DNA of 5,387 nucleotides from the IMG/VR virus record IMGVR_UViG_2534681654_000014; one strand, written 5' to 3'. The stretch is from a virus. Lineage: Duplodnaviria > Heunggongvirae > Uroviricota > Caudoviricetes. A program made the position numbers. Numbering within the stretch: the first letter of the stretch is position 1; every line of letters begins with the position of its first letter. This document shows positions 1 through 3,000 of this stretch, one piece after another.

Positions 1-3000
1 TTATGCTTCCATCGGAAACGATGATCTGGCAGCCTGAGTTCACAGATAAAACACTCTCCAGGAAACCCGGGGCGGTTCAATCTTTTCTTTTTTCTTTTGT
101 AATAGTGTCTTTTGTGTCCCCCTGTTTTGAGGGATAGCAATCCCCTAATTTGAGGGATGTTTTATCCCTCGTTTTAGGGGATTTTCCCTCGTTTTGAGGG
201 ATGTCCCTCATTTTAGGGGAACCTCCCTCGTTTTGAGGGATGCACCATTCTGAGATGTTTTTATTTGGTCCAAACATGCCGCCTTGCTGCTTGATAATAT
301 TCATTCTGACGAGTTCTAACTTGGCTTCATTGCACCGTTTGACAGGTAACTTTGTAATCTCGCTAAGTTGAGAATCGGTGATTCTGTCCATTGGTTTATT
401 CCACCCATAGGTTTTACGCAGAATGGCAAGCAGCACTTTAAACTGTCGCTTGGTCAGATCTGCGCCTGAATAAGCCTCAATCAGCATATTTGATAGTCTG
501 GCGTAACCATCATCGAGATCTGCCACATTACGCTCCTGTTCGGCAAAGTTACCTCTGCCGAAGTTGAGTATTTTTGCTGTATTTGTCATAATGAATCCTG
601 TGGATTGATCCAGTAATTCCCTCAGAATTGCATATCAATTTGCTTAGAGTCCCCGGCGGCCACCGGGGATTTTTTCTTTGTGATTCCATCCAATGCATAC
701 TTAAAAGCCCTGCTAATCGGACTGATGTCTGATGCCATTCCGAAAGCACACAAGACCGAAGCAATAAACCGCCAGTCCGTTCTGCTTATCTTCGATTCAT
801 GACAGCCAATCATCTTTGCCAGACCGCGCTGGGTAAGCGTTGACAGGTTGATGAGTAAATCAGTTTCAGCGCGATCAATTTCTCGCTGTGTTGGCTTGCT
901 GTAGCTTGCTTGTGCCATTTGTTAATTTTCCTATATTGATATTGAGTTATAGCGGCACACCCAATGGATTTGCCGCTGATGTTTGCTCACCCGGTTAGAG
1001 GTGAAAGGCCATGATGAAAGAGCGGGTACTGCTTAGGCGGCTTTGTTACTGGATGGAGGGAAAACATCATCCAAAGAACATTGGCACCCTAACTTCCTGA
1101 GGCCTTCTACGATCATTCGGCAATCGTTAAGGCCAGGAGTACGGATATTCAGCTCATAGTTGGCGATGCGGGATTGCCCCCAACCAATTGCCGAAGCTAG
1201 TACAGCTTGCGAAACTCCGATTTTTTTTCGCTGCTGGGCAATTTTGTTCATTGCGGTCTCCCTAGCATTAATCACACACCCATTACACACAATTTGTGAT
1301 TAACAGTCAACCTCAATTCGTGTACAGAGTTCAATCACGTTGCGTGTTACATTTAAGGGATGAAAACGATGCATGAAATTATCGGGGAAAGGATCAAGTC
1401 CCTTAGAGAAGCTAAAGGACTTAGCCAGGCTCAATTGGCCAAGCTTTGCGGCTGGGCTGCGCCTTCACGCCTGGGGAACTACGAGTTAGGAACAAGAAAG
1501 GTTAGCGCGGATGACGCGCTGGTTCTTGGGGCGGCACTCGGCGTATCTCCGGCAAAAATAATGTTTGGCGAGGATTCAGACGCCGTATTTCGCCAATATG
1601 AATACCCGTTATTTTCTTCAGTGCAGGCCGGGCCATTTTCGGAGGTGGGAAGCTACACAGCCAGCGATGCAAAGGCATGGGTCCCAACGACCACAAAAGC
1701 CAGCGAAAAAGCTTTCTGGCTTGAGGTGAAGGGGCATTCAATGACGGCGCCTCAGGGGGTTCGTCCAAGTTTTCCGGAAGGCATGCTGATACTCGTTGAT
1801 CCGGCTGAGCCGGTAGAGTCTGGGGATTTCTGCGTGGCTTCTGCAAATGGTGATTCAGAGGCAACGTTCAAGAAGTATGAGAAGGATGCAGGGGTTAGTT
1901 ACCTGGTACCTTTAAACCCGGCATATAGAACCCTGGATTGCGACCATAGCTGCCGCATCATAGGCAAGGTAGTTAAGGCGCAGTGGCCTGAAGAGACGTT
2001 TGGCTGATCGGCAAGGTGTTCTGGTCGGCGCATAGCTGGTAATCCAACTTTTCCCTGTTCTTTTTATGCAAATTAATCTAATGAAATTGAAAAGATTTTT
2101 ACCTATTTTGTTGGTTCAGGAGAACATAAATGAGCGATAAACAAGAAGTTTCCTTAGCACATATCAATGATGTGCTGGAGTCCAAAAATTATATTGAAAC
2201 TAATGCTGATGGGGTTGTAACCATCGGAACGGATAACAATGGCTACGAAGTTTTTAACTTCGTTTTTCTCAATAGCACCCCTGTCATCGGCCATATGAAT
2301 GGCGAAATCGCAGTGGCAGGAATGCAGCGCACTAAGGTTGCGTCCGTGACTTTAAGTAAACAGAAGGCCTTCGATTTCTATCAGTCCTTGAAAAGCATGT
2401 TCGAGGAATAAAAGCTGATGAATGCAGCTCAATCATCTTTGGATGAGGGAAAGCTAGTAATTGCTTACTCTGATAAGAATGGCTCTACAGTAGGGCTGGA
2501 ATTTTCTTCTGTAGCATCAAGCCAAGCAACGCTCTTGATGAAAGCTTGTTCTGTTGCTGCTTCAGATAAAGAAAAACGGATTGTCACATCGGTTGTGATG
2601 GATGATACTGAGATCATTCAAACAACAAGTGATGATGGAGGCGACGACATGGATAAGCGATTAGCAGTTCTTGAAGCTGAAGTTGCGCACATCAAGAGCA
2701 GCATGGCAGGAATTAAAGAGGATACCCGGAAAATATCTTCTGATTCTACTGACGCCAAAAGAGACACCGCTGTACTTTTACAGAAGAGCCTGGATTTTGA
2801 TGCTTCATTATCTAAGAAACCATCGGTTGACTACTTTGAAGCTAAATTTTCCGCTTTGGAAACCAAGATAGCAGATGTAAAAGTATGGATGCTCGGGGTT
2901 CTCTTGGCCTCGCTTGCTATGCCAACTATATTTTTCCTAATAAACTTGTACCTTAAGAAAGGTCAGTAATTTAGCAAATCCGGCCACCGAGCCGGGTTTT

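Follow-up and report, generated by a model that had tools for sequence, protein, structure and literature searches.

Evidence for cargo exchange at conserved linkers downstream of cI in the immunity region of an Stx1 prophage

The viral sequence IMGVR_UViG_2534681654_000014, a stretch of 5,387 nucleotides (the window), is the immunity region of the Stx1 prophage VT1-Sakai/Sp15 of Escherichia coli O157:H7 Sakai. Between the stop codon of its repressor gene cI and the terminator Timm it carries a cassette of two genes, orf93 and orf183, which occupy the position of rexA-rexB in phage lambda. Comparison with related phages shows that two conserved linkers serve as exchange points for this cargo, independently of cI, the OL operators and the N gene, and the sharp G+C step at about position 2041 is the scar of the left recombination joint. 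The reading that we favour, with a probability of about 80%, is that the pair is cargo of the rex slot, swapped through the linkers, marked by a compositional scar and expressed in the lysogen. The further proposal that the two proteins serve in phage exclusion is one part of this reading and is given roughly even odds.

Cargo exchange between conserved linkers

The initial annotation of the window, made by eye, had suggested that the compositional boundary at about 2010-2040 is a recombination breakpoint with different cargo in related prophages, and this prediction holds to within 2 nt. In the phages mEpX1, L006 and L016, which have the same cI, identity to the window is lost at 2040-2042 and regained at 2977-2980, and other genes stand in place of the cargo. 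In mEpX1, the cI and N regions are those of the window, with a different gene pair (159 and 310 amino acids (aa)) between them; identity over 2980-3600 is 99.4%, and N is the far end of the shared backbone. The cI-side and OL/N-side flanks of VT1-Sakai, mEpX1 and L006 are 98.4-99.9% identical and the cargo alone differs, and therefore a double crossover that replaced the cargo is the simplest event in this lineage.

The reciprocal arrangement occurs in phages with other cI genes (HK544, L011, L063, L066, L073 and L076), where the cassette is present at 98.6-99.8% identity and BLAST matches to the window begin at 1981-2008 and end at 3004-3016. In HK544, cI, OL and N are of the lambda type, yet the slot is filled by the window cassette (genes 40/41, HK544c103/c104), with 2 differences in the 937 nt of cargo. 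GenBank notes for HK544 already point to ECs2991/ECs2992, the Sakai names of orf93 and orf183, and this phage is reportedly one of the wild phages with lambda immunity described by Degnan et al. 2007. One of the two HK544 differences alters the start codon of orf93 from ATG to GTG (window 2130).

Alignments locate the shared sequence at both edges of the slot. The left linker (1981-2041) is common to lambda, HK544, mEpX1 and VT1-Sakai irrespective of cI or cargo, and the right linker (2979-3015) is common to the same four phages. Judged from these alignments, the two linkers are the left and right crossover sites. An RNA structure was considered as a reason for the conservation of the left linker and was rejected, as shuffled sequences fold with the same energy (z = -0.06).

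A junction probe consisting of window positions 1642-2441 was compared with 5426 complete E. coli genomes. The full junction is present in 89 genomes, and partial matches comprise a cI half ending at 2040-2042 and a cassette half starting at 1981. A fourth class, which includes lambda lysogens, has the 62-bp linker alone, and many genomes match 1981-2042 only. The cargo itself is found in 93 of the 5426 genomes at 99% identity or more.

To survey the slot more widely, the 31-nt core of the left linker was scanned in IMG/VR, yielding 41 viral contigs from which the sequence between linker and Timm-like hairpin was cut out as cargo and clustered. Eight types of cargo and 13 types of cI are freely combined in these contigs. 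The VT1-Sakai cI occurs with four different cargos, and the window cassette is paired with three cI types among the 41 contigs; when loci from a second scan are added, at least seven full-length cI alleles accompany the cassette (at least 98.6% nucleotide identity). Each cargo is AT-richer than its adjoining cI (39.5-45.8% versus 43.7-52.3% G+C). The cargos that could be identified are RexAB, a BstA homologue (E = 1e-120), the PADLOC candidates PDC-M63A/B (the mEpX1 cargo) and PDC-S13 (E = 3e-84), a SocA/Panacea antitoxin encoded with a 133-aa partner, and a P63C-domain protein. No family match was obtained for a cargo encoding a 302-aa membrane protein or for the orf93/orf183 pair.

Published accounts call the region between cI and N a mosaic hotspot, a site for morons and a 'variable defence locus' (PMC8585504; PMC7067206; 10.1101/2024.02.24.581848), and passages of two of these papers credit the mosaic hotspot, or common accessory-gene site, to Degnan et al. 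2007 (PMC8585504; PMC7067206). The window conforms to this description in position, with cargo between the cI stop and Timm/OL on the cI strand, and in showing the same flanks around unrelated cargo, the same cargo within unrelated flanks, and conserved boundary sequences. The hotspot, its mosaicism, the AT-rich accessory genes, and the sharing of this cassette by HK544 and Sakai are thus already on record. A G+C step read by eye predicted the joint to within 2 nt, which adds little that is new to a known hotspot. The linkers are of more practical use as a search handle: one 31-nt probe recovered eight cargo types, at least four of them known or candidate defence systems (five if the Panacea toxin-antitoxin pair is included), and the same probe could harvest untested defence candidates from lambdoid prophages.

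Base composition across the joint

The cI gene has a G+C content of 52.5% (52.8% at third codon positions, GC3), compared with 36.1% for the spacer between cI and orf93 (2008-2129), 41.8% for orf93, 41.3% for orf183, and 40.1% for the interval 2040-2969 that the initial annotation had called markedly AT-rich relative to cI. The direction and place of this difference stand, and the accompanying estimates (cI well above half G+C, cassette one-third to 40%) were somewhat overstated. In 200-bp windows, cI has 52-54.5% G+C and the cassette 36-45%, with the profile falling from 0.52 at 1801-2000 to 0.36 at 2001-2200; the difference between cI and cargo has a chi-square value of 23.5 (p = 1.3e-6). 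The drop proposed for a sliding-window check is confirmed: with 600-bp flanks along the prophage, the G+C step is 0.145 at 2041, exceeding 99.8% of prophage positions, and its maximum, 0.152 at about 2037, ranks second among the steps of the prophage. At the right edge of the cargo (2978) the step is ordinary.

The choice of baseline determines which side of the joint appears unusual. The 5.4-kb window has a mean of 44.3% G+C, far under the 51.7% of the whole 47.9-kb prophage because low-G+C accessory genes follow one another throughout the early-left region, and within this window sieB (39.9%) and the ea10/DUF2528 gene (38.5%) fall below the cassette while cI is the highest 648-bp window. The idea that cI is the compositional outlier was an artefact of this baseline and was dropped after the whole-prophage computation. 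Against the prophage and the host flank (51.3% G+C), cI is typical and the cassette is the outlier. Specifically, cI ranks 44th of 67 prophage genes by G+C (z = +0.4), and 99.3% of prophage windows of the same size have higher G+C than the cargo. Among the lowest-G+C prophage genes, orf183 is 4th and orf93 is 7th; the others are stx1B, stx1A, ea10, sieB, kil and int.

Codon adaptation, which had been proposed as a further check, gives no clean split. A measure resembling the codon adaptation index (CAI), calculated with a small reference of flanking host genes (2091 codons, ordinary genes), is 0.550 for cI, lower for orf183 (0.513) and higher for orf93 (0.651), and it thus fails to identify the cassette as foreign throughout.

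It is possible to invert the account and regard a GC-richer cI/OR module as the imported piece, recombined into an AT-rich early region, so that the step records an immunity swap. We consider this unlikely, although it has real points in its favour. cI is the compositional extreme within the window, with the cassette near the window mean; the same cassette is found with at least seven cI alleles, so repressors cross the joint too; and HK544 shares the cassette only. However, the composition of cI is that of prophage and host, the cassette falls within the bottom 1% of prophage windows by G+C, and in VT1-Sakai, mEpX1 and L006 it is the cargo alone that differs between near-identical flanks. Import of cI and exchange of cargo are compatible across the pan-genome, and cI import holds at that level. 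Which part was acquired is defined only relative to the cI-to-N backbone of VT1-Sakai, mEpX1 and L006. It is far less plausible that the G+C difference reflects protein make-up only (coiled-coil and small acidic proteins rich in Lys, Ser, Asp and Ile) with no separate origin: orf93 would suit this explanation, with a GC3 of 48.9% near the window norm, low G+C arising mainly at the second codon position (29.8%) and a CAI-like value above that of cI, but orf183 has a GC3 of 36.4%, the non-coding leader has about 36% G+C, the step lies within 2 nt of the independently mapped joint, and AT-richness is common to every cargo type in the slot, regardless of the proteins encoded.

The proof of the joint is comparative, and composition by itself is ambiguous. 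The initial proposal that the cassette is a moron acquired from a different source than the repressor gene is supported with qualifications: the comparisons show that the cargo is swapped between phages, but the repressor module is exchanged as well. Morons, as defined by Hendrix and Juhala (HK97 gp15 and lambda bor and lom are examples), have a distinct composition, their own promoter and terminator, and are expressed from a repressed prophage. The cassette resembles them in being present or absent as a block among relatives, in a composition unlike that of its neighbour, in its 3' terminator, and in expression from the prophage as reported in the literature. The compositional likeness applies to the left edge (a step of 0.145-0.152) and not to the right, where the step is not unusual. 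The cassette differs from a moron in having no detected promoter of its own, apparently depending on that of cI, and in being swapped at fixed linkers instead of inserted at an arbitrary point between two genes. Because the terminator is present and a promoter was not recognised, it is better described as cargo of the cI operon than as a textbook self-contained moron.

Expression, protein features and possible function

A simple consensus scan found no sigma-70-like site upstream of orf93 (2008-2129), although a weak or non-canonical promoter is possible. With no detected promoter of their own and no terminator ahead of them, orf93 and orf183 probably form the downstream end of the cI transcript from PRM (and PRE), which ends at Timm, and are thus made in the lysogen. 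Published data record expression of both genes in O157:H7 cultures. The ECs2991 (orf93) protein was identified by liquid chromatography-tandem mass spectrometry (PMC3936929), and Z3360, recognised as orf183 by its size and its motif MKAC44S, gave a high array signal in EDL933 (log2 11.8-13.0) with mild RpoS dependence (PMC2907692). The Z3360 protein was seen solely in a membrane-enriched fraction of >280 kDa (PMC3210124). Z3357 was also considered as a cassette gene and turned out to be cII.

The orf93 product is an acidic protein of 93 aa (10.3 kDa) without a membrane segment. It belongs to phrog_12039, a family of unassigned function, and has no Pfam, PADLOC, NCBIfam or PDB match. The orf183 product (183 aa, 19.7 kDa; phrog_12602) has a variable N-domain (approximately residues 8-60), modelled as a beta hairpin and helix at residues 10-48, followed by a disordered acidic linker and the invariant motif GGD-M-KRLAVLEAEVAHIK. 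Beyond this motif is a long helix with the heptad pattern of a coiled coil, and the C-terminus carries a single strongly hydrophobic helix (157-175; hydropathy 2.15) before a final KKGQ. No signal peptide is present, and therefore the bulk of the protein should face the cytoplasm, with the C-terminal helix as a predicted tail anchor in the membrane. Residues 60-181 match phrog_3556 (E = 1.2e-26). PDB-sequence profile searches gave only coiled-coil noise for orf183 and nothing for orf93, no toxin, antitoxin or DNA-binding domain was found in either protein in Pfam or NCBIfam, and the cassette has no Rfam match. Both are real genes under purifying selection, because the ratio of nonsynonymous to synonymous substitution rates relative to homologues in L053, L054 and L057 is 0.08 for orf93 and 0.22-0.33 for orf183.

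Homologues of orf183 form 21 clusters, all from Enterobacterales, and retain a small upstream partner. Six homologous pairs (nine loci, 44-90% identity) were looked up in Serratia, Enterobacter, Citrobacter and metagenomes, and in every case the pair immediately follows a prophage repressor gene on the same strand. These repressors are of the S24-type cI and short RacR-type kinds and adjoin cro/cII-type or YdaS/YdaT-type switches.

The C-terminal module of orf183 is distributed more widely. A profile of this module searched against 1.84 billion representative proteins yielded 72 clusters at E <= 1e-10. Many of the proteins are only 92-158 aa long, contain little beyond the module, and belong to phrog_3556; orf183 shares with them the GGD-M-x-RLAVLE core, the coiled coil and the C-terminal membrane helix, and differs in its extra N-domain and in always having a partner gene. 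Among 80 viral module loci from IMG/VR (L059-L138), 76 had enough upstream sequence for a repressor check, and in at least 59 of these a cI-like gene on the same strand precedes the module by 300-700 bp. The open reading frame (ORF) between the cI-like gene and the module resembles orf93 in 20 loci; in the others it comes from several unrelated families, including ones of about 141, 167 and 112 aa. When species genomes were scanned more strictly, the module appeared in Xenorhabdus, Photorhabdus, Serratia and Symbiopectobacterium, among others. Module-only proteins gave only sub-threshold coiled-coil matches in Pfam and NCBIfam, and tblastn of a module protein against phage records returned the window cassette only. 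One module protein, P0052, matches the 'hemolysin' family phrog_937 (E = 6e-6); orf183 itself matches neither phrog_937 nor the Pfam XhlA family. The literature searched holds no recognition of the C-terminal module as a wide repressor-linked family with interchangeable partners.

The cassette also has an internal seam. Across nine pairs (L047, L049, L053-L055, L057, L059, L077 and L079), orf93 identity tracks that of the orf183 N-domain (r = 0.99) and does not track the coiled coil (r = -0.15) or the membrane part (r = -0.44). The synonymous divergence (dS) from L053 is 1.49 for orf93 and 0.23 for orf183. In light of this co-variation and the dS contrast, the cassette is itself a two-part mosaic joined at the core motif, which fits a design in which a specificity unit is combined with a common membrane module. 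The orf93 protein and the orf183 N-domain are not recognisable paralogues (hhalign probability 0.2%).

The mechanism begins with homologous recombination in the linkers that bracket the slot between the cI stop codon and Timm, which swaps cargo between phages independently of cI, OL and N. In the lysogen, orf93 and orf183 would be made from the PRM/PRE transcript of cI. The orf183 product is predicted to form a coiled-coil oligomer anchored in the inner membrane through the C-terminal helix, and orf93 together with the co-varying N-domain may form the specificity or sensing part. By analogy, the pair might constitute a prophage-encoded phage-exclusion (abortive-infection-like) module whose logic resembles that of RexA/RexB without homology to them, a proposal that we regard as a coin toss.

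The analogy with lambda rexA-rexB extends to the slot, the left linker and the Timm hairpin. In both cases the cargo is a low-G+C gene pair (rexAB 40.4%) encoding one soluble and one membrane protein, and both would be read from PRM in a lysogen. However, there is no sequence similarity, and the Rex families in Pfam, PADLOC and PHROG are unmatched. RexB (144 aa) crosses the membrane several times, in contrast to orf183 with its single C-terminal helix and long coiled coil, and RexA has 279 aa compared with the 93 aa of orf93. The Rex system excludes T4 rII and other phages by depolarising the membrane. BstA of prophage BTP1 is likewise expressed in the lysogen from the repressor's promoter, immediately downstream of the repressor gene and with its own terminator (PMC8585504), and a BstA homologue occupies the same slot in L039; BstA differs in being a single 305-aa protein of another family that is accompanied by the aba self-immunity DNA element, of which no counterpart was noticed in the window, where no search aimed at one was made. 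The mEpX1 genes 041/042 are the PADLOC candidate PDC-M63 (a DUF6932 protein and the 310-aa protein), which is alternative AT-rich cargo (39.5% G+C) on the same cI-to-N backbone with flanks 99.4-99.9% identical. Its proteins are unrelated to those of the window and, unlike them, are catalogued as candidate defence.

Several observations weigh against the favoured reading, most of them against exclusion as the function. No family in PADLOC-DB v2.0 is matched by orf93 or orf183 at E <= 0.1, and orf183 is also without a Pfam or NCBIfam match. The AlphaFold2 model of orf93 is unreliable (predicted local distance difference test (pLDDT) score 46.7), and that of orf183 (pLDDT 65) has no fold match in BFVD at E <= 0.001. 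Searches of the literature by locus tag and accession returned expression data and no functional study of either gene. Inference from position is weak, given that two or three of the eight cargo types likewise have no characterised role. The joint variation of orf93 and the N-domain could equally be a by-product of DNA adjacency, with crossovers in the core motif. Co-transcription with cI is deduced from anatomy, annotation and published expression. Z3360 was described in the proteome study as a possible atypical lipoprotein on the basis of MKAC44S, with no hydrophobic leader (PMC3210124), although the C-terminal membrane helix suggests a simpler account of its behaviour in the membrane fraction. 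RexA itself is reported to have a second role in the lysis-lysogeny switch, which it biases in lambda.

This last point also bears on the proposal that the pair has a role outside defence, whether as a modulator of the prophage's own switch or induction, as a toxin-antitoxin-like addiction pair, or as a host-fitness factor like bor or lom. Such a role would suit the location of the cassette within the repressor operon, the Panacea antitoxin pair among the alternative cargos, and the mild RpoS dependence of Z3360 noted above. We think it improbable, since neither protein has DNA-binding or toxin domains, most of the identifiable slot cargos are defence systems, and the pairing of the cassette with at least seven different repressors argues against a role as a repressor-specific partner.

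Several prophage single-pass membrane proteins act by blocking DNA entry. A block of superinfecting phage DNA at the inner membrane, comparable to those of SieA, T4 Imm and HK97 gp15 and causing no cell killing, would agree with the predicted membrane anchor of orf183, its recovery from a membrane-enriched fraction and its production in the lysogen. Nevertheless, we give this mode of action a low probability: orf93 and orf183 have no homology to such proteins in Pfam, PHROG or PADLOC, nearly all of orf183 is predicted to be cytoplasmic in a tail-anchored protein without a signal peptide, and a soluble partner is always present in the homologous pairs.

Returning to the exclusion proposal, its broadest form would treat the repressor-linked Enterobacterales family as a new exclusion system, in which a phrog_3556 membrane effector is combined with interchangeable sensing units made of partner and N-domain. 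This generalisation is put forward tentatively, as something that may well not hold. Most Stx1 prophages of O157:H7 carry this cargo, which is made in the lysogen; if it excludes phages, the range of phages able to grow on these pathogens, other Stx phages and therapeutic phages among them, would be affected. The cassette is best viewed as a modest lead for the discovery of defence systems.

Gene map of the window

Coordinates of all features are collected in Table 1. The gene map is based on Pfam and on the annotation of the VT1-Sakai record AP000400, whose coordinates are converted to those of the window by an offset of 43535, and it follows the standard lambdoid immunity layout. Window positions 1300-3500 are 100% identical to AP000400, bases 79-5387 match this record, and E. 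coli genomes are 100% identical from base 79 on. When the whole window is compared with AP000400 at one offset there are 57 mismatches, and those listed all lie in the first bases.

Table 1. Features of the 5,387-nucleotide window (+ is the strand shown).
Feature	Position	Strand	Remarks
End of insertion sequence (IS)	1-78 (junction 78/79)		Not VT1-Sakai; matches the end of an IS3-family (IS629-like) element in gene O
O	to 589	-	Replication gene
cII	622-918	-	
cro	1033-1251	-	
OR operators and PRM/PR region	1285-1350		AP000400 operators 44820-44884, PRM 44856-44885
cI repressor	1360-2007	+	215 aa; helix-turn-helix and Peptidase_S24
Left linker	1981-2041	+	Last 27 nt of cI and 34 nt downstream
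Exchangeable cargo	2042-2978	+	937 bp, 40.0% G+C; bounds from alignments and BLAST end points
AT-rich leader of cargo	2042-2129	+	Carries ribosome-binding site AGGAG
orf93 (ECs2991)	2130-2411	+	First cargo gene
orf183 (ECs2992 / H0053 / Z3360)	2418-2969	+	Second cargo gene
Timm, intrinsic terminator of PRM/PRE transcript	2976-3006	+	Hairpin CCGGCCACCGAGCCGG and T run
Right linker	2979-3015	+	Timm and a few bases after it
OL operators and pL promoter	3213-3283	+	AP000400 46748-46818
nutL	3331-3371	+	AP000400 46866-46906
N antiterminator, phi21 type	3482-3754	+	Pfam N_peptide, E = 5e-17
sieB	3771-4352	-	
ea10/DUF2528 gene	4613-4981		Followed by cIII/kil
Lambda_thermo (Rfam; cIII thermoregulator RNA)	5041-5099	+	88.5 bits, gathering score 50

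The repressor gene matches the Pfam families HTH_3 and Peptidase_S24 (E = 3e-26) and is named cI in the AP000400 annotation and ECs_2990 in Sakai. A terminator scan describes the Timm hairpin as a 9-bp stem with five G-C pairs; the AP000400 record lists this element as terminator of the pRM transcript, and the HK544 record names it Timm.

At the left end of the window, the O reading frame stops at 77-79 and encodes 170 aa, compared with 312 aa for the intact gene. Because the insertion truncates this replication gene, the prophage copy with the IS-interrupted O is probably replication-defective.

The interval between Timm and OL (3009-3212) is C-rich, with a strongly negative GC skew (-0.3 to -0.4), and contains no ORF of at least 40 aa. 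This stretch is common to mEpX1 and is not found in HK544 or lambda.

Start codons differ by annotation for three genes. For cI (1360/1369), the RefSeq product has 215 aa and that of AP000400 has 212 aa; for N (3452/3482), the longest ORF has 100 aa compared with 90 aa annotated; and for cro (1251/1290), the longest ORF, with a GTG start, has 85 aa compared with 72 aa annotated. At the right end of the window, the Lambda_thermo element lies just upstream of cIII/kil and extends into it.

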